From: a phage
Reading direction: 5' to 3' (one strand)
Length of the DNA: 64,000 bases
Sequence record: PZ445448.1
Positions 34,670 to 50,589 of this stretch are shown in pieces. Position numbers and translations under genes: made by a program. The notes beneath the pieces are model-generated. The model made no database searches, was not told the DNA's origin, and saw nothing but the letters and a program-made list of their open reading frames with translations. Each line of letters starts with the position of its first letter. Positions within the stretch are counted from its first letter, which is position 1.

Positions 34670-37036
34670 ATGAGTATGTGGAATTTTGACTTTGAGGCCT
34701 CAGGTCTTCTGGACGAGGAAGATCTTTACTACCATTGTGGCCTGTTTAAAGAGTTGAATAAAAATAATTTTATGTTGTTTTTGCCTATCAATGATAGATC
34801 TCATTACAGTGAAGAGGAGGTTGAAAAAGCAAAACAATTTATGCTGGCAAAGCAAGATATCTATCCTAGCTGCTCTGTCCGTATTGCGGATTTCAGCCAG
34901 CTTGAATGGTGGTTAACCGGGAACTCCGATTGGTCACCCACATCATTAAGTTGTCACAACTGTTTTAGTTATGACTTTATCTTGATGGAGAAGCTGTCTG
35001 GTATTCATTTTGATATGTTCCGTGATCCCAAGTGTATGGGGACAATCAATAATCATCAGGTGAACCTGTTCGACACTCTGCCAATGAGTCGTATACTATG
35101 GCCCGACAGACCGTTACCTAAAGGATGCCCTGATTCTGTATACAATCCTGTTACAAAACGTATGCAGCAGGTAGGTCCTCATGGCCTAATGGCGTGGGGG
35201 TACGCTTTAGGAAACCAGAAGGTTAAAATTGATGACTGGAGAAATTTACCTCTGTGGAAGTATGTTGATCGTGTATTCGAGGACGTTATCATCCAGGAGC
35301 TGCTCTGGAAAGAGCTGGTAGCGGAATCAAAAGGTGTATTCTACGGCAAATCTGACATGCAGAACTTTATGTACGATCCAGCCAAAGAGAAGCCGAAAGG
35401 GTTCAAGAAGATTACCTGGAAGAATGCATTACGCCGAGGCATGCTGCAGCATTTCCTGATGGAGCTGCAGGCTCGACAGGGTGTGTATTTCGACATAGAT
35501 GGGGCTATTGCTTTACGTGACCGCTGCGATGCGTGGATGAAAGAGATCGCTGATCGTGTTGAACCACAACTTCCTTTAAAAGAGTTATCAATGTCTCAGC
35601 GGCCTAAGTTCCCTGAAAAGCCGTTTAACCAGGATGGGACAATCTCCAATAATGGTTGGAAATGGTTAAAAGACAAGCTTGGCTACCCTGTGGACATGAG
35701 TGCTTTAGAATTCAAAGCTCCTCCTAAGCGAGCATTTACCTCCACAGGAGATGTCAGTAAGATGGGGATAAAATGGTGTGAAGAGATGGGCTGTAAAGAC
35801 CCTGATAAGATGGCGGATTTCTTGAGGGGCTATATCAAGGGCACCTCCACACCACAACCTTTACCTAAAGAGCTAATGGATCAGGCAATAAGTGATCTAC
35901 AGCAGAAGCGAATGCCTGACTGCAAGATACCTATGAAAATCAGCAATCAGGACGATATTAAGCGATACCTGATCAGTGCTGGTTGGCTTCCGACAATGTG
36001 GAGAACTAAGGATGTAACTAAAGACAGCAAGAAGAAAGCTCTACCTGATGCAGATGTTGATGCACGAGTGTATGCATATATGGACGAGCTTTTAGAGTCA
36101 GAGTATTGTGACCTAATTATCAACTTCTGGAACAAAACTGATGCTAAGTTCCAGACAACCGTGCACAAGTTCCGAAGCTTTCCTAACTCCGAAAGGATTA
36201 AAAAGGAAGTATTCGGGAAAATACGTAGAAAAGCTAGGGCACTTATTACTTCTCCGCAACTGAAAGATACGTTTGGACACCTATGCCCGAATCTTGAAAA
36301 ATTGAACGGAGAGATGGCTAAAGATATCGTCTTGTGGTTATCATTGCGAAACCGCAGATCGGTCCTTGATCCAATCAAGGAGGATAAGGTTGATACTGGT
36401 CTTCTTAATCACCCACGTTTGAAGATTGACCATAAGCTTCCTGCTAAAAGTTCTGGATTAACAAACACTTCCCGACAGAAACATAGTATTTGTGCAAACA
36501 TGCCTAAACCATCTCCTAAAGTGGTTATGGGTAAAGAGATGCGTAGTCTGTGGGGTGTTCCTCCAGGATACTTTGAGATCGGTATTGACGGGTCCAACTT
36601 AGAGCAGCTTATCGGGGCTTGGGGTGCCTTTGAGTTCGACAACGGCCTGTATTACGATGTTGTAAGTAACGGGGACGCACACCAAAACAATGCTGAGGCA
36701 TATACAAAAGTAGCAGGTAGAGAGGTGTCTCGTAACGACGGTAAACCTATCACGTATGGGGTTATGTATGGGGCACAAAAAGATAAAGTTGCAGATATGC
36801 TGGACATCTCTCCAGAGTTGGGACAAAGGGTAATCGATGCACTCTGGGATGCCAACCCTGGTCTTAAGGGGCGTAAAGAAGATCTGGAGAAATTCTGGGA
36901 AGCAACGGGTAAGAAGTTTATCTACTCTTTTGATGGTCATGCTATCTGGACCCGATCTAAACACTCTTTACTTAATGCATACCAACAAAATGGCGGCGCA
37001 TCGTTGTGTGACTTAGTTGGGATACTCATGCACCAT
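34670..37036 (+). CDS. family A DNA polymerase, exon 1
   Basis: Exo I FDFEASGL, motif A IGIDGSNLEQL, motif B RNDGKPITYGVMYGAQ; ORF runs 21 codons into the intron to a stop at 37097-37099; exon end at U37036 inferred. Confidence 0.65.
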
Positions 37037-37935
37037 CAAATGGTGAAGCGTGGGTGGTACGATGAAGGTGTTCGTCGTATTATCTATTACCATAAATAAC
37101 ATTGTGGCTTCGTGCAGTGATGCACGTCGAAAACCTCTTTAATTGACGGGAAGGCTAAGTTGACTTTTACACCTAAACATGGTAAAAGCTCAATATGCTA
37201 ATCCGCAGCGAAGACTAAAGGGGTGTAGTTAAAATGGCTAGATCAGTTGAGTATCACGGATATACCGTGTTTGATGATGGAACAATACCTTTATCGAAAC
37301 GTGATCATACAACAATGTTTTGTTTTGATAATGGTCGAGGTTACCTTTGCGTAACCATGTTCATCGAGGGGAAGCAGTGCACAAAAGGTGTCCACCACTT
37401 GGTTGCTGAATGCTTTGTATCAAACCCTGATCCTGAAAGGCTCACATGGGTGAACCATAAGGACGGAAACAAATACAACAATGCATACTGGAACCTTGAA
37501 TGGACCACCCCTGGTGGAAATATCAAACACGCTTATGATAATGACCTCAGAGTAAGGCCAGTCGGTGAGTATAATGCCAACGCTGTACTGACCGAGGATG
37601 AGGTAACGGAGATTTGCGAACTGTTACAAAGTGGTTTACGACAATGCGAGATTAGGGATCTTGGGTATCCTTATGAGACGGTCAGAGCCATAAAGCAAAG
37701 AAGACAGTGGAAACATATCTCTAAAAACTACACCTGGTAGTAACGTTCAGAGACTATCGAAAGCATAGCGCCAACATAAATTGGTGCGAAGAAGCGAGTA
37801 GAGTAGACCAGCAAGTGCGGTCGAAATGGGAGGTGCCTTGGTAACAAGGTAGTGAGATAGTCCGATCCATACAGGAAACTGTATGGCTGTGCACGTAATG
37901 GTGCGGGGTAGCTTAACGACCTACCTGAACTATTG
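37037..37935 (+). mobile_element. group I intron carrying an HNH homing endonuclease ORF
   Basis: Candidate P1: exon ACCAU with intron GUGGU (37054-37058), U.G at the splice site; P7-like GACUAUC (37753) / GAUAGUC (37846); terminal G at 37935; splicing restores HDE and keeps frame. Confidence 0.55.
37234..37740 (+). CDS. HNH homing endonuclease (intron-encoded)
   Basis: HHLVAECF...WVNHKDGNKYNNAYWNLEW matches HNH_3-type signature; C-terminal helix-turn-helix-like segment. Confidence 0.65.
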   Translation: MARSVEYHGYTVFDDGTIPLSKRDHTTMFCFDNGRGYLCVTMFIEGKQCTKGVHHLVAECFVSNPDPERLTWVNHKDGNKYNNAYWNLEWTTPGGNIKHAYDNDLRVRPVGEYNANAVLTEDEVTEICELLQSGLRQCEIRDLGYPYETVRAIKQRRQWKHISKNYTW

Positions 37936-41102: not shown

Positions 41103-41471
41103 ATGGAACAAATGAACGATCAAGAGTCGGTTGCGATGAACGAGCAAGAACAACCTCAAGAATTTTTCTTAGGGTTAAGTAAAGATCAAGTGTCTCTTTT
41201 GCTAGTGCTTTCTTCTTTCATGGGAAGACTTCAGGAGCTCACACAACAACCGGAGGCTGAACAATTATTTCAGGCTCTGCGTGAAGAAGAAAAATATCGT
41301 CGTTTGGACTATGCCTTAGGTTGGGTAGCTCAACAACGAGATATGCTGATGGCCCTCTCTGGGACCACAAGTTTTGCAATGGGCCTGTTGGCTCAAGTTC
41401 AGGACAAATTAATTCAAGCAGGGTTTGCACACACGGCAAACACTAACGAAGAACAAGGAGACAAAGAATGA
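41103..41471 (+). CDS. hypothetical protein (122 aa)
   Basis: ATG after AATCGGAGA. Confidence 0.5.
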   Translation: MEQMNDQESVAMNEQEQPQEFFLGLSKDQVSLLLVLSSFMGRLQELTQQPEAEQLFQALREEEKYRRLDYALGWVAQQRDMLMALSGTTSFAMGLLAQVQDKLIQAGFAHTANTNEEQGDKE

Positions 41472-42694
41472 GCGTTATTCAACAATTCGCTAACCCGATG
41501 AATCCGCGTGAAACTGTTTTACTGGCTCACGGCATGATTAAACGCGTCAGCATCAAGCCTATCAAAGGTGCTGATCCTACAACAGGTATTAAAACCACTG
41601 TGTGGCAAGGTAAGAAAATTGAATCCAGCCACACCATCTCTTTACTGATTTCTGAACTGGATTCCTCTGATAACCTACTTCAAGGTGGTGAAGAAGTTTG
41701 GATCAGTATGGGCGATAAGCTGCTTAAACCGGGTCATCAAGACTCTGTCTCTGTTAAAATTGATGACAAGTGGGAAACCGTAACGCCAGGATGGATCGTA
41801 AATATCCCTTTGAAGGCAAACGAGCATAACGGTAAGACCTACTACAAAGGCTCACTGGCTAAGATGGTTAAGCTGGGTGCAGGAGAGGCTCCAGCAGCGA
41901 CTCAGCAGCAAAAACAGCAACAAGGTGCACAATCACAAGGCCAGAAGCAGAAACCTCAGCAGAATGCCAATCAGGACGTTTTACGCATCTATGGTGATGT
42001 GACTCAGATTGTTGGCAACGTGGTTACTGTAAATGATCACAAGATTGGCGAAGGTGCTATGGTTGTAACTGATGAGCAGCTTAAAGACCTGGTGGTAGGT
42101 GGTCGTGTTGCAGCCATTGTGGACAAAGACACCGGAAACATTATCAGTGGTTTCAAAGCCTACCCACCTAAGGCAGAGAACGGCACTCAAGGCCCTGGTG
42201 GCAAGCGTAAATCCTCTTACGACCCTATTGGTGTGGAGACGGGGCATAGCATCAATGCGTTGCAGATCATCCTGGATCGTGGGTTTAAGGTAGACGACCC
42301 ACTAGGCGTGGCTAAAACACTGCACGTAGTCACCATCGAGCTTAAGAAAGAGTATGCTCAAGCCACCAACCGAACTGAAGATGAAGTAGGTGCCAGTGTC
42401 GGTAATGCGGTGTTGAACGCTTGTCGCCGTATTGACAAGAAAACGAAAGTTGATGATTTTGCAGCGGCAATTACTGCAGAAGCAAAAGATGTCTTGACTA
42501 ATCTGGCTGAGCCGTTGTACGATTGGATCAAGAACGGTGCTGGGTCAACTGACCATCAAGAACCTCAGGCTGCCAAACAGGAAGCAGCTCCACAGCAAAA
42601 CACTGTAGACGCTCCTCCTGTAAATGATGGGGAAGATGACCCGATGGATCAGAATCCAGCACAGTATGACTTCTGTGATGACATACCGTTTTAA
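41468..42694 (+). CDS. SSB-like single-stranded DNA-binding protein
   Basis: C-terminal tip DFCDDIPF resembles the bacterial SSB acidic tail (DDDIPF); Gln-rich linker; N-terminal region plausibly OB-fold. Confidence 0.55.
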   Translation: MSVIQQFANPMNPRETVLLAHGMIKRVSIKPIKGADPTTGIKTTVWQGKKIESSHTISLLISELDSSDNLLQGGEEVWISMGDKLLKPGHQDSVSVKIDDKWETVTPGWIVNIPLKANEHNGKTYYKGSLAKMVKLGAGEAPAATQQQKQQQGAQSQGQKQKPQQNANQDVLRIYGDVTQIVGNVVTVNDHKIGEGAMVVTDEQLKDLVVGGRVAAIVDKDTGNIISGFKAYPPKAENGTQGPGGKRKSSYDPIGVETGHSINALQIILDRGFKVDDPLGVAKTLHVVTIELKKEYAQATNRTEDEVGASVGNAVLNACRRIDKKTKVDDFAAAITAEAKDVLTNLAEPLYDWIKNGAGSTDHQEPQAAKQEAAPQQNTVDAPPVNDGEDDPMDQNPAQYDFCDDIPF

Positions 42695-42708: not shown

Positions 42709-42737
42709 AGCCCTGCCCGAAAGGGTGGGGCATTTTT
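42709..42737 (+). terminator. rho-independent terminator (GNRA-loop hairpin), copy 2
   Basis: AGCCCTGCCC-gaaa-GGGTGGGGC plus ATTTTTG; same hairpin as 31729. Confidence 0.55.
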
Positions 42738-42756: not shown

Positions 42757-43173
42757 ATGACATTAGAAGATATCATTGTTAAACCTGAGAACTATGACCA
42801 ATACAACCTGTCAACTCAATCTGTAGACCTTGGATGCGCCACAGTTAGTGCGTGGCTGGTTAATGGAAAAGAGCTGGACAAGTGCTTAGAAGCTCACATG
42901 TCTGTTAACAAGTTTCTGGATGAAAATACTCACTGGCTTGAGGGTGCTGGAGTATATGCTTCATGGTTGGAGAGCATGGGCTTTGACTATCAATCTGATG
43001 AAGGGTGGTGGAGCTATCTAGCTATCTGTCCAGAAACACTGCAATGCTTCATGAAATACTCTGAAGATCTTGAGTACCGGGCGGTGGTTGATAGTGCTAT
43101 TGCCCGTTATAGCCGTAAACCTTTTTCCCATGACATTAAAACTGTGGAAGAATTTGTTGAAGTTTTCTGTTGA
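42757..43173 (+). CDS. hypothetical protein (138 aa)
   Basis: ATG after TAAGGAGATC. Confidence 0.5.
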   Translation: MTLEDIIVKPENYDQYNLSTQSVDLGCATVSAWLVNGKELDKCLEAHMSVNKFLDENTHWLEGAGVYASWLESMGFDYQSDEGWWSYLAICPETLQCFMKYSEDLEYRAVVDSAIARYSRKPFSHDIKTVEEFVEVFC

Positions 43174-43269
43174 CACAGGTTGAAAGGTGTGCAATTATAA
43201 CTTCATAAAACGGGAGGACGTGATGAACGAAGAAAACTGGGATGTATAACTAACAGGAGGCCACTGCCC

Positions 43270-43467
43270 ATGATTTATCGAATCCGTGTAAGAGAAGATG
43301 CACCAGGCTGTTACTTTGACTGGCGTGGGTGGTGGTTTCTCCACCCAATGGATGGACTCACAGATAGAATGCTGGATGCTGCCCTTTATACAGATACCGA
43401 CATAGAGTATAATCTTTATCTGAAGGATGGTATAGATAACGGCCTGTTTGAAGCAATTCCTGTGTAA
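43270..43467 (+). CDS. hypothetical protein (65 aa)
   Basis: ATG after AACAGGAGGCC. Confidence 0.5.
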   Translation: MIYRIRVREDAPGCYFDWRGWWFLHPMDGLTDRMLDAALYTDTDIEYNLYLKDGIDNGLFEAIPV

Positions 43468-43592
43468 GAGACTGTGATAGCCATGTTTTATGATCTTCCT
43501 GTAGCACCACCTGTTGAACCTGGAGAACTAAGATGATCTATGAAATGCCAAAATTGATCCGTGACGATGCCTAAAACGCTCACACCATTATT

Positions 43593-43958
43593 ATGGGCAA
43601 ACGCATGGATATTATTTGTCATAAAGATTTCTGGGAAGGAAGTTACTTCACAGAATATTTTGGTAAACTGGACAATGGTCTGCTGATCCAGTTCTACACC
43701 GATGCGGAAAACAACATTCACTGGGAGTTCGAAACTGAAGATATCCATAAACTTTTCACCTTCCTCGGTATTAAGGTTGAGGCCAAGTTTGAAGAAGGTG
43801 AGTGCGACGATTGTGGATTCTATGAGGTAACAGATTTCTATCTCCCGAGTGGTGAGAACCTTTACTATGAGAGTCACTTCGGAAACACCAACATGCCTCA
43901 AAGCTGGGAAGAATTTTTCAGTATCGTAGAAGAGGAGCTGGCATACCGTGATTATTGA
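43593..43958 (+). CDS. hypothetical protein (121 aa)
   Basis: No clear RBS; start could be ATG 43605. Confidence 0.4.
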   Translation: MGKRMDIICHKDFWEGSYFTEYFGKLDNGLLIQFYTDAENNIHWEFETEDIHKLFTFLGIKVEAKFEEGECDDCGFYEVTDFYLPSGENLYYESHFGNTNMPQSWEEFFSIVEEELAYRDY

Positions 43959-44406
43959 TACTGTAAAGGGAGATTTAATCTCCCTTTTTAAGAGCGGTGC
44001 TGGTCACCTAATCCACGGTTGTAACTGCTTCCACACAATGGGTAAGGGCATAGCAAAACAGATTGCCCGTGAGTTTCCTCAAGCATTGTCAGCCGACAAA
44101 GAGACCAGACACGGTTGCCTAAGTAAACTGGGTGCGTTCTCCCGATGGGAGCACTTATCTCCGAGAGGTATTGTCTACGGAATCAATCTGTATACTCAGT
44201 TCTACCCAGGGCCTAATGCTGAATATTTCTCAATCCTGAAAGGCTTTGAGCTAGTCAATGAGGTATTCGAGGGATCGACTTTACCATTCTACATCCCTAA
44301 GATCGGGTGCGGCATAGGCGGTTTGAAGTGGGAGCACGTAGAGGACGTTATTAACCTCGCCACTTTTGATATAGATATTATCGTGGTGGAGTACAAAGAG
44401 TGTTGA
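43948..44406 (+). CDS. macro-domain-like protein (candidate ADP-ribose binding/hydrolysing)
   Basis: GTG start; GHLIHGCNCFHTMGKGIAKQIA resembles macro-domain N-x(5)-G-x-G-[VI]-A; later IGCGIGGL glycine-rich segment. Confidence 0.45.
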   Translation: MIIDTVKGDLISLFKSGAGHLIHGCNCFHTMGKGIAKQIAREFPQALSADKETRHGCLSKLGAFSRWEHLSPRGIVYGINLYTQFYPGPNAEYFSILKGFELVNEVFEGSTLPFYIPKIGCGIGGLKWEHVEDVINLATFDIDIIVVEYKEC

Positions 44407-44431
44407 CAGCCGACTTTTGAGATGGTATAGT
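44403..44431 (+). promoter_or_regulatory. sigma70-type promoter (TTGACA-17-TATAGT)
   Basis: TTGACA 44403-44408, TATAGT 44426-44431, upstream of 44463 gene. Confidence 0.5.
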
Positions 44432-44462
44432 CACCACAACGATTGAGAGAGGGAGCACCACT

Positions 44463-44663
44463 ATGGAGACTAAAATCTTAATTCTGGCTGTGATAGATAC
44501 GACCGAAGGGGCCGTGTTCGAATCTGCAGGAGGGTATTTCTACCTGCCCTACGGAAAAATAACTTCCGAACCGAGTAAAGATTCAATCCTTAAAGTGTTC
44601 CCTTGTGCTTTCTGGCTGGAGATTCTAGTAGAAGATTGCAGAGGATTGGGGAGAGAATTATGA
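44463..44663 (+). CDS. hypothetical protein (66 aa)
   Basis: ATG after GAGAGAGGGAGCACC. Confidence 0.5.
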   Translation: METKILILAVIDTTEGAVFESAGGYFYLPYGKITSEPSKDSILKVFPCAFWLEILVEDCRGLGREL

Positions 44664-44854
44664 GAAACAAGAAAGAGCTTTATTCTGGCGAGTGGATCAA
44701 CGATCAACAGGTCGGAGAGGTAACCTGCTTCCGGTGTTTTACTCGGTACAATCTTAAAACTGCACCAAAAAGTGTTCCAAAGACTGACGGTTATTACATA
44801 AAAGAACCTCATTGCCCAAAATGTAAATGCCGATTGTACTGGAGCAATCTATAA
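44660..44854 (+). CDS. zinc-ribbon protein (64 aa)
   Basis: ATGA-coupled; CFRC ... CPKCKC pairs. Confidence 0.5.
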   Translation: MRNKKELYSGEWINDQQVGEVTCFRCFTRYNLKTAPKSVPKTDGYYIKEPHCPKCKCRLYWSNL

Positions 44855-44858
44855 GAGG

Positions 44859-44886
44859 TTGACATCTGAAAACTGCAGTGTATAGT
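44859..44886 (+). promoter_or_regulatory. sigma70-type promoter (TTGACA-16-TATAGT)
   Basis: TTGACA 44859-44864, TATAGT 44881-44886, upstream of 44918 gene. Confidence 0.5.
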
Positions 44887-44917
44887 ATACGCATAAACTA
44901 ACAGAGAGCGATGTATT

Positions 44918-45109
44918 ATGGTAATTTTTAACCGGGATGGTATCATAGTTAGACAGCACCCGTTCCTTGAATACTATCAAATTGAGCAATGGTGCTACGG
45001 GGATTGCAGTCACTCCTATGGGCAAAGTTGGGGATATCGCACAGTTTTTGAATCAACAGACCTTGACAAAGTAAGACAGAAAGTTTTAGAACTTATTAAC
45101 AACAAGTGA
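44918..45109 (+). CDS. hypothetical protein (63 aa)
   Basis: ORF downstream of promoter. Confidence 0.5.
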   Translation: MVIFNRDGIIVRQHPFLEYYQIEQWCYGDCSHSYGQSWGYRTVFESTDLDKVRQKVLELINNK

Positions 45110-45118
45110 GTATGATAT

Positions 45119-45451
45119 ATGGTAACATTAGAAAGACGTAAAGCTATCGCCGCCACACTGGCAGACATCTTTTGGGATTGCAACTTAAAAGATACCAGAA
45201 ATTGTGGCGCATCTGTAGATGTATTATTCCCACGGCCCACCATTGTTGCAATGGGAAACCTGTTAAACGTAGTGTACGGAGCATGGGACAAAGAAGGTGG
45301 ATTCTATATCTGGCAACCTGACTACGGAGCCTGGAAAGAGGTAAGGGGTGCGGATGACTTTGGGCCTACAGTTGCTAAGATGGATGGCTGGGAAATTTAT
45401 GTTGGAAACGACATGAAGCTGAAAGGCGAGATTGTTTACTGGTTACCTTAA
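45119..45451 (+). CDS. hypothetical protein (110 aa)
   Basis: ORF after GAGTATGATAT. Confidence 0.5.
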   Translation: MVTLERRKAIAATLADIFWDCNLKDTRNCGASVDVLFPRPTIVAMGNLLNVVYGAWDKEGGFYIWQPDYGAWKEVRGADDFGPTVAKMDGWEIYVGNDMKLKGEIVYWLP

Positions 45452-45471
45452 GAAAGTGCAGGAGATAAAGT

Positions 45472-45717
45472 ATGAACAAAGGGTGGACATTTGTAGACGG
45501 CGTTAAAAACATGCCTCTAGGAAAGTATATCGTAGCCATGGCTGATGAGGATGGCAATGTAGATTTCGGAGCTTGCGAGGTTGTTCTTGCAGGATCTGGT
45601 AACTATGTGAGTAAAACCGGGATAATTAACGGTCAGTTCTACTTTGATCACAACCCTGTTGTAGCGTATATGGCTATGCCAGAGTTCAAGTTCCCAAAGG
45701 AGGGTGCAGATGTTTAA
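45472..45717 (+). CDS. hypothetical protein (81 aa)
   Basis: ATG after GCAGGAGATAAAGT. Confidence 0.5.
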   Translation: MNKGWTFVDGVKNMPLGKYIVAMADEDGNVDFGACEVVLAGSGNYVSKTGIINGQFYFDHNPVVAYMAMPEFKFPKEGADV

Positions 45718-45907
45718 GCTTAAATCTGCATGGAACATCGCTGTGGGGGACGAGATCCGTATCCCAGGTGGAAAGACCATTATGAAGATATCTCGTATTG
45801 AGTACGAAGGTGACCGTGTATTCCACATCTTCGCAGAAGATGGTCGAGAAATTTATATACAGGCAGGTTCTCACATTTATATCCGTAAGAAAGGGGACGA
45901 CAAATGA
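45710..45907 (+). CDS. hypothetical protein (65 aa)
   Basis: ATG 45710 after AAAGGAGGG; overlaps upstream gene end. Confidence 0.45.
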   Translation: MFKLKSAWNIAVGDEIRIPGGKTIMKISRIEYEGDRVFHIFAEDGREIYIQAGSHIYIRKKGDDK

Positions 45908-46233
45908 CAGAGATCATCATTTCAACTGCAGGGTATGTGTTCCTGACAATCATTGCACTGACTATTTTGGTGACAGTGTATGGGTTTGTTATCCTTCCTA
46001 TCCTTGAGACATTTAGTTTGTGTCGGTGTTGGAGAAAAGCTTACGGTCCACAACCATGGAAGGACTGGCCCCACCTGGTGCGCTTAGCGTTCTCTTATGC
46101 TTACGATCACTCCAGTAGTGCATGCATAACCGGATACCACGCCCACAACTGGAGCTGGGAAGGATTGAGGAAATGGAATGTTACAAAGACCATACCTCTA
46201 CGCATGTACAAACCTAAAAACAAAGACAGCTGA
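45904..46233 (+). CDS. hypothetical membrane protein (109 aa)
   Basis: ATGA-coupled; N-terminal hydrophobic helix IISTAGYVFLTIIALTILVTVYGFVILPIL. Confidence 0.5.
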   Translation: MTEIIISTAGYVFLTIIALTILVTVYGFVILPILETFSLCRCWRKAYGPQPWKDWPHLVRLAFSYAYDHSSSACITGYHAHNWSWEGLRKWNVTKTIPLRMYKPKNKDS

Positions 46234-46269
46234 TACTTGAAAATTCCTGGCATATCAAGTGTAAGGGGG

Positions 46270-46730
46270 ATTTCTAAAATGGATTTCCTCCTTTTGATAT
46301 TTCACCGGGCTGGATATTTTAAAATTCTTAGAAAATCAGAAAATGGATCGAAAACTAAAATGGATTTTTCAGAGTAGGCGCGACAAGCTGAATAACTCAT
46401 CCTATCGTTTGCACCATATTCCAGGCCACCATTATAGATTTCCCACACATGCTAACCTCCCTCTACTAGAACTTCCTCCACTTGCCCTTAACCTTCTATG
46501 GTAACAATCTAACCACTATCTTGAAGTTGCGGTGCAGCTTTCCAAGTACTCGATCTACTTTTCATTTCATGGCTTGGATTTTCTGAAAATTTTTCTCGAT
46601 AAATTTCTCAGTACTCGATCTGTTTTTCGTTTTCTGAATCGGATTTTCTGGAAATCGTTCCGGATCTCGACCTGAAATTTTTGGGGACGAAATCGATTTT
46701 TCGTTTTCAGAAATGGATTTTTAAAATTTC
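46270..46730. repeat. noncoding direct-repeat cluster (AAATGGATTTT / GGATTTTCTG units; GTACTCGATCT x2)
   Basis: At least six copies of the GGATTT-containing unit and a roughly 64 bp tandem duplication beginning AGTACTCGATCT; no ORF with RBS. Confidence 0.5.
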
Positions 46731-46869
46731 TATATGGGAATATTTTATGGGATACTGTTTTATAGGAAATTGTTACGGAGGGTAATTAGCATGCTAATTA
46801 AATTTATTAAATGCGAGGAGTTCTCATTTAGAATTTTGAATGATAATCATTCTCGTTTGCAGAATAACG

Positions 46870-46910
46870 GGCAGGCCCGGTGATTGTCTCCCCCGTCACC
46901 GGTGCCTGCC
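46870..46910. other. long GC-rich hairpin
   Basis: GGCAGGCCCGGTGA ... TCACCGGTGCCTGCC, about 14 bp stem with one bulge and an 11 nt loop. Confidence 0.45.
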
Positions 46911-46935
46911 GTCCTTTCGATAGGTATATTGTGCC

Positions 46936-47074
46936 ACCTGGCGGGGCCGCTGTCAACACTTTTCAAAAAATTTTTCTAACCTGATGCGCTAACCGCTGCA
47001 ACCTGGCGGGGCCAGCCTGGCAGGACCTAACTGACCAGGTAGGAGAGAATGAAGGCTTGTAAACCTGGTGGGCC
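46936..47074. repeat. three ACCTGG(C/T)GGGGCC iterons at 62-65 bp spacing
   Basis: Copies at 46936, 47001, 47063; a further degenerate copy near 47239. Confidence 0.5.
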
Positions 47075-47374
47075 TATGCTATAGGACAGGTAACAATTGA
47101 AGAGGAGGTACAAAAATGAAAGGTAATGTGATCCCCTGGAAAATGTAGCTATTAATGACGCTGAGGCTATCGCCCTGGTTGAAAAGGCCATGGCGGGAGC
47201 GTTGGAACATAAAGAAGAGTACGAAAAAATGATGGTTAACCTGGTAGGGCGGCGGCAGGTGGATTCTATCATAAAAAATAATTTAAAATAATTGTTGACA
47301 ACCGGGGGAGTCCTGCTATTCTTACCCTACAAGGTGAACAACACCGCACTAACTAGTAAAGAGGATAAAAAATC

Positions 47375-47572
47375 ATGAACGCATACGGAATCAAAGTACG
47401 TCGCAACACTCGCCAGGTGGTCACCGATCAAGTGGTTTGCCTGGTGGATGTAACCATCAACAACGGGCAAGGCCTTTATAAATTTCGTCGCGGTCATAGC
47501 TATACCCTGCAACAGCTTAATCGTTGCGCCCTGACAAAAGGTCAGATCAATCACTGGTTTAATAAAAAATAA
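47375..47572 (+). CDS. small-gene block protein (65 aa), unknown function
   Basis: ATG after AAAGAGGATAAAAAATC; promoter-like TTGACA at 47295. Confidence 0.55.
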   Translation: MNAYGIKVRRNTRQVVTDQVVCLVDVTINNGQGLYKFRRGHSYTLQQLNRCALTKGQINHWFNKK

Positions 47573-47575
47573 GTA

Positions 47576-47604
47576 TTGACATACGCCCCGACACAAAATA
47601 TACT
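47576..47604 (+). promoter_or_regulatory. sigma70-type promoter (TTGACA-17-TATACT)
   Basis: Hexamers at 47576-47581 and 47599-47604. Confidence 0.55.
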
Positions 47605-47636
47605 GAAATCACAAAAGACACTAAGAGGATAAAATC

Positions 47637-48035
47637 ATGAAAACCACAACCTTTAATTTTGACAATGCCGACTTCTCTTTTTCTGATGTCAAGAACTGCC
47701 GCCGTGATCGTGGATTTTACAAGGCTTATAATCTGGTTGGCCTGGACGATGATAATAATTTGCACGAAGTAGCGGAGATCCGGTACTATGCCGCCGCCAG
47801 CGGTAACACTAACTACTGCGTTTTTTGGATACACGACAACAAGAACAATAAGTACGGTTATACTGGCGGCAAGGCGAGCGGTCACGGTTATGATAAAGCT
47901 AACGCAGCACTTGAGAGCGCATTAAATGCTATGGGGATCACTGCCAACGGCTGGATCTATGAAGAAGAGTTTTTGTCAGCACTTGCTGCCCACCTGGGGT
48001 ATAAAAAGCACATTGTGACATGCGCCCACGAATAA
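47637..48035 (+). CDS. small-gene block protein (132 aa), unknown function
   Basis: ATG after CTAAGAGGATAAAATC. Confidence 0.6.
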   Translation: MKTTTFNFDNADFSFSDVKNCRRDRGFYKAYNLVGLDDDNNLHEVAEIRYYAAASGNTNYCVFWIHDNKNNKYGYTGGKASGHGYDKANAALESALNAMGITANGWIYEEEFLSALAAHLGYKKHIVTCAHE

Positions 48036-48127
48036 AAAAAAAAAAAATTATTGACACGCTGCAAAATTCAAGTAAACTATACACAAAAGGCGGGAATGTT
48101 TCCCGCCAACACAAAGGAAAAAAGATC

Positions 48128-48523
48128 ATGAATAAGAACGTACGCCGCATCATGAACGAACTGGCAAACGATGAAAAAATTATTGATATGCATTTGGTCA
48201 ACATTTGCCGCCGTTGTGTAACATATAACAACCGCGCCGCAAAAGCGCGTGAGATGAACGCAAAAGGCACCTTAAAGCCCTTTCAGGTGGTTGTAAAATC
48301 TATAACCAGTGCAGCAGGCCAGGCGCATGACCACAACAACGGGAGCACTAATATTGATCCGTCTTACGTAATGAAACGGATCCGGACTTGCAAGAATAAA
48401 GAGCAGGTGTATAACGTCATAGATTGGCTGGACTCCCTGGGCGATGTGGTTTATAATAGGTTTTCTGCAGCTATCGAGATCCAGCTTGACAGACTGGACG
48501 GGAAAGTACTGAAAACTTACTAA
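48128..48523 (+). CDS. small-gene block protein (131 aa), unknown function
   Basis: ATG after AAAGGAAAAAAGATC; leader hairpin GGCGGGAA-tgt-TTCCCGCC; TTGACA at 48043. Confidence 0.6.
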   Translation: MNKNVRRIMNELANDEKIIDMHLVNICRRCVTYNNRAAKAREMNAKGTLKPFQVVVKSITSAAGQAHDHNNGSTNIDPSYVMKRIRTCKNKEQVYNVIDWLDSLGDVVYNRFSAAIEIQLDRLDGKVLKTY

Positions 48524-48525
48524 GT

Positions 48526-48571
48526 TTATTTTTAGATGGCCTTGACGCCAGGGCCATCAATAAAGTAAACT
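48526..48571 (+). promoter_or_regulatory. dyad-embedded promoter-like element, copy 1
   Basis: TTATTTTTA-GATGGCC-TTGACG-CCAG-GGCCATC-AATAAAG-TAAACT; TTGACG sits in the dyad spacer, 18 nt to TAAACT. Confidence 0.45.
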
Positions 48572-48602
48572 AATCCCAGTTAAGCTAAAAGGAGGCTTGA
48601 AG

Positions 48603-48722
48603 ATGAGCACTACACGCCAGCACACAAAGGTAACTATTATCGTTTGCATCATTGGTTATATCCTGGCGCAAATGTTGATGGGTAGCGCCAACGGTGTCGC
48701 AAAATTTTTCTTAAACTTTTAA
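48603..48722 (+). CDS. small hydrophobic peptide (39 aa)
   Basis: ATG after AAAAGGAGGCTTGAAG; predicted single TM helix; below the 60 aa ORF-track cutoff. Confidence 0.5.
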   Translation: MSTTRQHTKVTIIVCIIGYILAQMLMGSANGVAKFFLNF

Positions 48723-48750
48723 TTGACAAGCTAACTTAGATCGGTATACT
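48723..48750 (+). promoter_or_regulatory. sigma70-type promoter (TTGACA-16-TATACT)
   Basis: Hexamers at 48723-48728 and 48745-48750. Confidence 0.55.
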
Positions 48751-48800
48751 AAACACATCAACGGGAAAACTTCCCAGAACACACAAAAGGAGAAAACACC

Positions 48801-49142
48801 ATGACCACTATGACCGCCGCAGAAAAAGCTATTCAGATCGCTGCCCTGAAAAAACAGATCGCAGACCTTGAGAATAAGATCGATAACTTTGAAATCGACG
48901 AGGACAAGTACGACGAAAACTATGATGAATGGTTAGACGAGATCTACGGCGAAATTATGATCGGAAACATTTCTTTTCTTCCGTCGCGTATCCTCAAGGA
49001 GCTAGATCCTATCGCTTACCGCTGCGGATTTAGCGACTACATCGACAGCCTGGATATTGAGGACGATGAAGAATACCAGGAATTACAGACAGAGTTGGAA
49101 GAAGCAAAAGAAGAGCTTGCGGAGCTGGAAGAAAACGAGTAA
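48801..49142 (+). CDS. highly acidic coiled-coil protein (113 aa), unknown function
   Basis: ATG after AAAAGGAGAAAACACC; Asp/Glu-rich throughout (DEDKYDENYDEWLDEIYGE ... ELEEAKEELAELEENE). Confidence 0.6.
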   Translation: MTTMTAAEKAIQIAALKKQIADLENKIDNFEIDEDKYDENYDEWLDEIYGEIMIGNISFLPSRILKELDPIAYRCGFSDYIDSLDIEDDEEYQELQTELEEAKEELAELEENE

Positions 49143-49144
49143 GA

Positions 49145-49190
49145 TTATTTTTAGATGGCCTTGACTCCAGGGCCATCAATAAAGTAAACT
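49145..49190 (+). promoter_or_regulatory. dyad-embedded promoter-like element, copy 2
   Basis: TTATTTTTA-GATGGCC-TTGACT-CCAG-GGCCATC-AATAAAG-TAAACT. Confidence 0.45.
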
Positions 49191-49231
49191 TTATACTGTT
49201 AACACTGAACTAATGCATAGGAGTTAAAACC

Positions 49232-49477
49232 ATGGCAGCACTAATCACTAAATATTACGCCCCTACCAACACCAAAAGCGCCCGTATCATGGTAAAAGGC
49301 TTCGGACGTAAAAAGGTTTACACCTGGGATTATGCCTTAGACACGGAAGACAACTACACCAACGCGATGACAGATTTTATTAATGAGCTGAACACGCGGA
49401 TCTTGACAAATTATAAAATTACCGATATTGCCTATATAGGGGAAGGCGGGATCTGTTTTGTCGGTATCGTCAAATAA
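49232..49477 (+). CDS. small-gene block protein (81 aa), unknown function
   Basis: ATG after TAGGAGTTAAAACC. Confidence 0.6.
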   Translation: MAALITKYYAPTNTKSARIMVKGFGRKKVYTWDYALDTEDNYTNAMTDFINELNTRILTNYKITDIAYIGEGGICFVGIVK

Positions 49478-49553
49478 ACTGTTTTTTCGGTGGTCCTGGT
49501 AGCAGGGCCATCTATAAAGATAGTTTATCAATACAATGAAAGGAGAAAGTAAC

Positions 49554-49907
49554 ATGATCAGTGGGGCAAGTTTTATCATTGGCGCTATTGCTACGGCTTT
49601 AATTGTAAATAAGATCCAGGATAAAAAGGAAAGAGGAAGTACCGCCCTTGCAGAATATCCATTTTGGGCATTCAACGATAACGAAGATTATATTATAAAG
49701 TATAAAAATAAAGAAGGTGACCAAGTAACACCACGACCGATCCCGGCTTACAAAATGCAGGAAACACTATACCGCCTGGAGGCGGGTGGCGCAAAAATTG
49801 TAGACTTTTGGGGATACGACCACACAGATCAGGAAGTTATAAAGCGCCGTATCCGGGCTATTCAGGCCAATATTGAAGTTAGCAAGGGGGGAATATATGA
49901 AAATTAA
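49554..49907 (+). CDS. small-gene block protein (117 aa) with N-terminal hydrophobic segment
   Basis: ATG after AAAGGAGAAAGTAAC; a partial copy of the dyad element lies upstream. Confidence 0.55.
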   Translation: MISGASFIIGAIATALIVNKIQDKKERGSTALAEYPFWAFNDNEDYIIKYKNKEGDQVTPRPIPAYKMQETLYRLEAGGAKIVDFWGYDHTDQEVIKRRIRAIQANIEVSKGGIYEN

Positions 49908-50094
49908 TTTCGAGAAAATTGTAAAGCGCCCTCATGATTCCGAAGAGCTGCCAGAACGCCGCCAGCGTAACAATAAACTGAATAAGCCAAAAAGGTTTGG
50001 GAAGATCTGGCGGAATCATTATGATCGTAAATTGCCGGGCCTACTTTTGGAACGTGAACGACAAGCGGAACGATACCGCCACAAAGACAAATAG
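49897..50094 (+). CDS. small basic protein (65 aa)
   Basis: ATG after AAGGGGGGAATAT; overlaps previous gene by 11 nt; Lys/Arg-rich. Confidence 0.5.
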   Translation: MKINFEKIVKRPHDSEELPERRQRNNKLNKPKRFGKIWRNHYDRKLPGLLLERERQAERYRHKDK

Positions 50095-50101
50095 CAACCA
50101 A

Positions 50102-50128
50102 CGCCCCGCCATTGTGCGGGGCTTTTTA
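50102..50128 (+). terminator. rho-independent terminator
   Basis: GCCCCGCC-attgt-GCGGGGC followed by TTTTTATTT. Confidence 0.55.
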
Positions 50129-50251
50129 TTTCTATCCTACGAATAGCGCCCCTGGTTGGCCCTGTAAGCGCCAAAAAGGCCCCCACCTATGCAATCGCCC
50201 CTTTAACCTGAAAACATCGCCCAGGGCCGTTTTATGGCGTTAAAAATATCA

Positions 50252-50279
50252 TTGACATCGTCAACAGGTTAGCTATACT
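50252..50279 (+). promoter_or_regulatory. sigma70-type promoter (TTGACA-16-TATACT)
   Basis: Hexamers at 50252-50257 and 50274-50279. Confidence 0.55.
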
Positions 50280-50311
50280 AACCACATCAAAGAGAGAAAG
50301 GAGTAAACGCC

Positions 50312-50572
50312 ATGCGTAAATTAAAAAATTTTGATAAAGTTGATGTTATCCTGAATAATTTTTACTACTGCAACAACAAGGCTATTTGGTGGCGTGATAG
50401 TTCCACCGATAAAGTCAAAGCGCGCTTTCTTCAGGGGCACTGGCAAGGCCGCCCAGTGATTAAAATCATGGGGCAATTGGTAGCGTTTAAAAATTGCCGC
50501 CGTGTTGATGACGTTGAGGAGATTTTAAACATTTTGCGCCACAATAATTTAAAAAATAGTGTTGACAAGTAA
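50312..50572 (+). CDS. small-gene block protein (86 aa), unknown function
   Basis: ATG after AAAGGAGTAAACGCC. Confidence 0.6.
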   Translation: MRKLKNFDKVDVILNNFYYCNNKAIWWRDSSTDKVKARFLQGHWQGRPVIKIMGQLVAFKNCRRVDDVEEILNILRHNNLKNSVDK

Positions 50573-50589
50573 ATCTCAATAAGTATAAT
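50562..50589 (+). promoter_or_regulatory. sigma70-type promoter (TTGACA-16-TATAAT)
   Basis: Consensus hexamers at 50562-50567 and 50584-50589. Confidence 0.6.

Follow-up and report, generated by a model that had tools for sequence, protein, structure and literature searches.

A standalone macrodomain protein of an rV5-like coliphage, related to T4 Tk.4, and its probable role in erasing DarT2 marks from phage DNA

The window considered here, the whole 64,000-nt stretch of phage DNA analyzed (record PZ445448.1), comes from a Vequintavirus (rV5-like) E. coli myovirus, with 98.6% identity to phage isim over 2.8 kb. The subject of this analysis is a gene for a small macrodomain protein, the rV5-type homolog of T4 tk.4/adfM; features at and around it are collected in Table 1. 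The gene is kept in about 115 related genomes, whose records mostly label it "hypothetical protein," with a few instances of "macro domain protein" or "O-acetyl-ADP-ribose deacetylase." Its GTG start is taken to be correct because homologs carry the same N-terminus, MIIDTVKGDL. The overlap with the upstream open reading frame (ORF) is annotated identically in KP869102, and the two genes are probably co-transcribed and translationally coupled.

Table 1. Positions in the window of the macrodomain gene, its predicted binding-site motifs, and nearby expression signals.
Feature	Position	Strand	Remarks
Intrinsic terminator	42710..42731	+	9-bp stem with 7 GC pairs, T-run; ends the replication-module transcript and borders the small-gene block on its upstream side
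Candidate sigma-70 promoter, TTGACA-17-AATTAT with TG	43170..43198	+	Consensus scan only; could drive the 43270-44406 gene group
Second candidate promoter	43385..43413	+	Precedes the macrodomain gene; like the candidate at 43170, weaker than the perfect promoters further downstream
Upstream ORF, 121 amino acids (aa), phrog_8157	43593..43958	+	Unknown function; overlaps the start of the macrodomain gene by 11 nt
Ribosome-binding site GAGGAG (Shine-Dalgarno)	43932..43937	+	10 nt 5' of the GTG; direct sequence reading
Macrodomain gene, rV5-type homolog of T4 tk.4/adfM	43948..44406	+	152 aa; GTG start, TGA stop
Loop 1, residues 23-36, HGCNCFHTMGKGIA	44014..44055	+	Putative ADP-ribose/phosphate-binding motif with H23, N26, and G32-x-G34
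Strand end N80-L-Y-T-Q84	44185..44199	+	HMMER alignments, motif table
Loop 2, residues 117-125, PKIGCGIGG	44296..44322	+	Glycine-rich, predicted diphosphate-binding; alignment and conservation
Near-consensus promoter TTGACA-17-TATAGT with extended -10 TG	44403..44431	+	Starts the next transcription unit

A preliminary description of this DNA had tentatively called the protein a macrodomain from two short motifs, naming a Pfam Macro profile search and structure prediction with fold comparison as checks, and both bear the call out. Pfam Macro (PF01661) matches at 28.5 bits (E 1.6e-6; gathering score 22 bits), and phrog_335, labeled "phosphatase" in PHROGs, at E 2.9e-60. DarG is the first match in both NCBIfam and PADLOC, restricted to the macro part of this two-domain antitoxin. 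An AlphaFold2 model made from an alignment of 44 homologs has the alpha/beta/alpha macro fold with high confidence (mean predicted local distance difference test score, pLDDT, 96.8; predicted template modeling score, pTM, 0.91), and its top Foldseek match is TARG1, with template modeling (TM) scores of 0.78/0.85. No competing family appeared in the profile and structure searches. By sequence and by structure, the nearest neighbors are members of the ALC1-like class (TARG1, DarG, Poa1p, and SCO6735), and the protein is very likely an active ADP-ribosyl hydrolase of this class. It has homologs in 121 database clusters at E <= 1e-3, and in tblastn searches it was matched in 2,811 of 50,697 phage records (~5%), with many hosts. 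Among viral structures, the best match is BFVD A0A481YV05 (TM 0.93, 39% identity), an "SNF2 subfamily protein" of 302 aa that comes from the metagenomic Marseillevirus LCMAC103; the presence of a Tk.4-like macrodomain in this giant-virus bin reflects either a real transfer or a binning artefact.

The two motifs quoted in the preliminary description, GHLIHGCNCFHTMGKGIAKQIA (residues 19-40) and IGCGIGGL (residues 119-126), correspond to the two ADP-ribose-binding loops of the macro fold. Conservation was counted in an alignment of 124 sequences, including PhiKZ gp104 added as an outgroup. In loop 1, at least 93% of these sequences keep each of the residues H23, G24, N26, C27, M31, G32, G34, and A36, which align with H24/N27 of SCO6735 and N22 of DarG; K33 is found in the window protein at a position where 81 of the 124 have Ala. 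In loop 2, residues P117, I119, G120, G122, and G125 are conserved, and the segment aligns with P(R/P)(I/L)G-x-G-x-x-G of BT1257, SCO6735, DarG, and TARG1. The signature of an ADP-ribose cleft is thus present, with N26, G32, G34, G120, G122, and G125 each conserved in at least 90% of sequences. At the end of the intervening strand, Gln84 aligns with the catalytic lysines of DarG (Lys80) and TARG1 (Lys84) and with Gln85 of SCO6735. It is kept in 119 of the 124 sequences, the exceptions being PhiKZ gp104 and four database entries that are short or partial. The near-invariance of the expected catalytic pocket residues (N26, Q84, and both Gly loops) argues for an enzyme, and makes it very improbable that the protein acts non-catalytically, whether as a direct inhibitor that binds DarT or as a sink for immune signals derived from ADP-ribose, such as the cyclic ADP-ribose isomers of Thoeris. 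The protein has no DarT-binding domain, and the ThsA-type macrodomains are much more distant in structure than the hydrolases.

A close relative is T4 Tk.4 (AdfM, anti-DarT factor macrodomain), which aligns essentially over its full length with the window protein (residues 1-150; 40% identity, E 8e-42). Both are standalone proteins of ~152-155 aa with Gln at the catalytic position, and they have in common the signature HGCNCFHTMG-x-G, NLYTQ, and P-x-IG-x-GIG, although 60% of their residues are unlike. In a T4 transposon library grown on a DarTG2 host, tk.4 was the sole significant hit, and a clean knockout made T4 sensitive to DarTG2, leading to the new name adfM; removal of ADP-ribose by the enzymatic activity of Tk.4 was proposed there, not demonstrated (HIDEN-SEQ preprint, 10.1101/2025.11.20.689424). 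A library was also made there for Bas54, a phage of the Vequintavirinae, with no DarTG2 challenge reported for it (10.1101/2025.11.20.689424). A literature search found no DarTG2 test of a Vequintavirinae or rV5-type macrodomain, a requirement under DarTG2 having been shown only for T4.

The two genes differ in setting: T4 tk.4 lies between vs and tk in the Straboviridae, whereas the window gene follows the replication module in the Vequintavirinae. A connection between these positions is provided by the T4-like Krischvirus Whisky, where the syntenic tk.4 position, downstream of regB, is occupied by a copy (L006:2501-2956) that has 69.5% identity to the rV5-type protein. The rV5 gene is therefore tied to the tk.4 locus, and horizontal transfer between Straboviridae and Vequintavirinae is implied. 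The Whisky copy is far nearer to the rV5-type protein than is T4's own Tk.4. Another variant of the locus is seen in Acinetobacter phage 133, where the tk.4 homolog (L002:3001-3738) encodes 245 aa, with a C-terminal extension of ~90 aa, and sits between the halves of a split DNA polymerase gene (43A/43B).

The best matches of the family profile are two enzymes of the Gln type, BT1257 (E ~6e-18) and SCO6735 of Streptomyces coelicolor (E ~9e-17). Like the window protein (H23, C25, N26, and Q84), these have H-x-C-N in loop 1 and Gln at the catalytic position, although overall identity is only 23-26%. They differ in having a mobile loop after the Gln that is five residues longer (with 5-6 residues inserted when compared with the phage profile), which the phage family lacks, and in having I-G-Q and WGKG where the phage family has Y-T-Q and MG-x-G. 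SCO6735 also has DNA-facing residues K34 and K89, the latter with no equivalent in the phage family. Gln85 of SCO6735 occupies the position of the catalytic Lys, and the Q85A and Q85E variants are inactive; the enzyme strips ADP-ribose linked to thymidine from DNA modified by DarT and shields cells against this toxin, by a mechanism proposed to be water-activated (PMC9411070).

Membership in DarG itself was rejected. The match to NCBIfam NF048014 reaches 48.5 bits, where the equivalog cutoff is 250, and covers only positions 2-143 of 338; the protein stops right behind the macro fold, at residue 152, with no DarT-binding C-terminal domain; and there is no adjacent darT, the neighbors having no Pfam match and belonging to PHROGs of unknown function. 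Gln84 also stands in place of the "PTK" lysine (K80 in T. aquaticus DarG). DarG2 of M. tuberculosis and T. aquaticus and PhiKZ gp104 have a catalytic Lys in "FPTK" (K80 and K78, respectively) and a loop 1 of the N-T-V-N type, in contrast to Gln84 and H-G-C-N-C here. The window protein is 28% identical to M. tuberculosis DarG and 21% to PhiKZ gp104 (E 7e-5), while the latter two are 35% identical to each other, gp104 having the DarG motifs (T-V-N in loop 1 and "FPTK"). Membership with the PhiKZ type of AdfM (chimallivirus gp104) was likewise rejected: the Asn of the gp104 N23/K78 pair is conserved, but the Lys is replaced by Gln, and similarity to DarG is lower. In a neighbor-joining tree, which is indicative only, being unbootstrapped and including PDB segments transcribed from the profile-search alignment, the window protein and T4 Tk.4 group with the Gln-type proteins and PhiKZ gp104 with DarG. 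The name AdfM has been given independently to T4 Tk.4 (bioRxiv, November 2025) and to PhiKZ gp104 (Cell Rep 2026, PMC13309987). With ~18% identity and Gln versus Lys at the catalytic position, the two appear from their sequences to belong to separate lineages.

A scan of species-representative genomes gave 173 confirmed relatives with 32-45% identity, many on megabase-scale contigs, of which 80 loci were kept for neighborhood analysis. These homologs are standalone (median ORF 154 aa) and retain N-x-Y-T/S-Q in at least 68 of the 80 loci. Their neighbors are not conserved, with 261 of 432 being singletons, and the recurrent ones are housekeeping genes (semialdehyde dehydrogenase, M23/M48/M16 peptidases, ABC transporter, NUDIX, and HlyIII). 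No DarT-like toxin was found beside them in these 80 loci. Because its members are standalone, with unconserved neighbors and no DarT-like partner, the Tk.4/rV5 lineage looks like an orphan hydrolase family of bacteria and phages and not a recent capture of DarG. Genes for NUDIX hydrolases lie within three genes of the bacterial homologs in six of the 80 loci (e.g., L075:2284-2922), a recurrence that hints at a coupled route for ADP-ribose disposal.

Removal of ADP-ribose from phage DNA is the most likely function for the window protein because its relative T4 Tk.4 lets T4 escape DarTG2. In the mechanism proposed here, the standalone protein, probably expressed early from host-type promoters, would bind the ADP-ribose moiety through loop 1 (H23, N26, and G32-x-G34) and loop 2 (P117 to G125), while Gln84 would hold the substrate and an activated water in position, following the proposal for SCO6735. 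The protein would then cut the linkage from ribose C1'' to thymine N3 made by DarT2 on TNTC in single-stranded phage DNA, releasing ADP-ribose and restoring thymidine so that replication could proceed in DarTG2-carrying hosts. Erasure of these thymine-ADP-ribose marks from replicating single-stranded DNA is considered its probable biological role. The preliminary description had raised reversal of ADP-ribosylation imposed by host toxins, and this gains support through homologs, from the genetics of T4 Tk.4 against DarTG2 and the biochemistry of the Gln-type SCO6735. TNTC is not depleted (observed/expected 1.06), which rules out evasion by loss of the target and is counted in favor of an eraser, as is the proof that related phages are under pressure from DarT (AdfN in Bas60-62). 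A Pfam scan of 29 window ORFs revealed no other ADP-ribose genes (NADAR proteins like AdfN, ADP-ribosyltransferases (ARTs), sirtuin, or KptA). Several points weigh on the other side: Poa1p matches the structure equally well, the bacterial homologs are found in orphan contexts, and the predicted isoelectric point is mildly acidic (6.0).

Some of the same observations could instead point to protein or RNA as the substrate, in place of DNA or besides it, the marks being made by other host ARTs such as the mRNA ADP-ribosyltransferase CmdT or being Glu/Asp-linked as for TARG1. TARG1 is the top structural match, SCO6735 also de-modifies auto-ADP-ribosylated PARP1 (PMC9411070), the bacterial homologs have no DarT partner, and the distribution among phages of many hosts is wider than DarTG2 alone might account for. 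However, the Lys84/Asp125 dyad of human TARG1/OARD1 is missing, with Gln84 at the first position and Gly at that of the Asp. T4 succumbs to CmdTAC despite carrying tk.4 (phage macrodomains are not discussed in the CmdTAC paper), DarTG2 is the sole system against which genetics has reported a phenotype for a family member, and no ART gene was seen among the scanned ORFs. Overall this seems unlikely as the main function, though it could coexist with a role in erasing DarT2 marks. The substrates of TARG1/OARD1 and yeast Poa1p (protein Glu-ADP-ribose, O-acetyl-ADP-ribose, and ADP-ribose-1''-phosphate) are not a phage-defense mark. A Poa1p-like hydrolase of small molecules, acting as an ADP-ribose-1''-phosphate phosphatase or O-acetyl-ADP-ribose deacetylase to clear NAD-derived by-products, would fit the legacy "A1pp phosphatase" label, but such labels come from domain names and not from tests. 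With no KptA/Tpt1 or sirtuin source of these metabolites seen among the 29 ORFs, and the DarTG2-specific phenotype of T4 tk.4 left unexplained by a metabolite role, this is considered quite unlikely.

The timing assumed for the erasure of DarT2 marks is suggested by the genome setting. Upstream lies a replication module (rIIA, rIIB, a Dda-like helicase, DNA methyltransferase, primase-helicase, DNA polymerase, and HNH endonuclease), followed by a gene for a 408-aa protein, the terminator, and an extended series of small genes without known function that includes the macrodomain gene. The TGA stop of the latter is held within the -35 hexamer (44403-44408) of the next promoter. Perfect promoters of the form TTGACA-N16-18-TATAVT number six in the 6.2 kb from 44403 to 50589, all on the + strand, where 0.08 would be expected by chance. 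The "middle-gene block" of the preliminary description is not supported by this arrangement: because a strong terminator precedes the gene and its block is dense in near-consensus sigma-70 promoters, these consensus matches suggest early transcription by host RNA polymerase instead, both for it and for the small-gene block.

Other features of the region can be noted. In typing phage 4, the product of the gene just upstream of the macrodomain gene is 141 aa long (MIYEMPKLIRDDAQNAHT...). Its window counterpart (43533-43958) has an in-frame TAA (43572-43574) in place of Gln14 (CAA); because only the internal ATG at 43593 is usable, the window isolate would have a nonsense mutation or a shortened product. 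The 408-aa protein (41468-42694, + strand; phrog_4477, unknown function), whose gene closes the replication module, contains a linker rich in Gln and Pro and has the C-terminus YDFCDDIPF. This closely resembles DDDIPF, the acidic tip at the C-terminus of E. coli SSB, and the likeness, the linker, and the position suggest that the protein may be an SSB of the phage; neither Pfam nor the PDB sequences gave a match. The DNA polymerase ORF (window region 34670-37740, + strand) is 809 aa and matches only positions 670-1185 of a 1445-position PHROG profile. It is directly followed by the HNH endonuclease gene (37234-37740) and several short ORFs, and may have been split or invaded by a mobile element. 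Finally, 16 "Campylobacter phage" records (host C. jejuni, ~143 kb; MG065644 and MG065690 among them) are ~96% identical to the window region. Unless these records are mislabeled or contaminated, the range of hosts is wider than expected.

Since a phage macrodomain that erases DarT2 marks has already been published, the finding is largely expected and the advance incremental. Mildly new is the Gln-for-Lys active site that sets this large phage lineage apart from the DarG-type AdfM: the largest phage macrodomain lineage has Gln where DarG and TARG1 have the catalytic Lys, a testable mechanistic distinction from the PhiKZ type. It is possible, and proposed here only tentatively, that the T4/rV5-type macrodomains are a separate Gln-dependent branch near the orphan bacterial hydrolases such as SCO6735 and not captured DarG proteins, water-activated in the absence of a catalytic Lys and perhaps accepting a wider range of substrates (thymine-ADP-ribose in DNA and protein- or RNA-linked ADP-ribose). 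If so, they would be broad-spectrum erasers of ADP-ribosylation-based immunity and not DarTG2-specific, and the name AdfM would span two non-orthologous enzymes of different mechanism. For the rV5-like phages, which are used in phage therapy and O157 biocontrol, a conserved and mostly "hypothetical" gene is given a probable counter-defense function, which would aid the prediction of host range on DarTG2-carrying E. coli.
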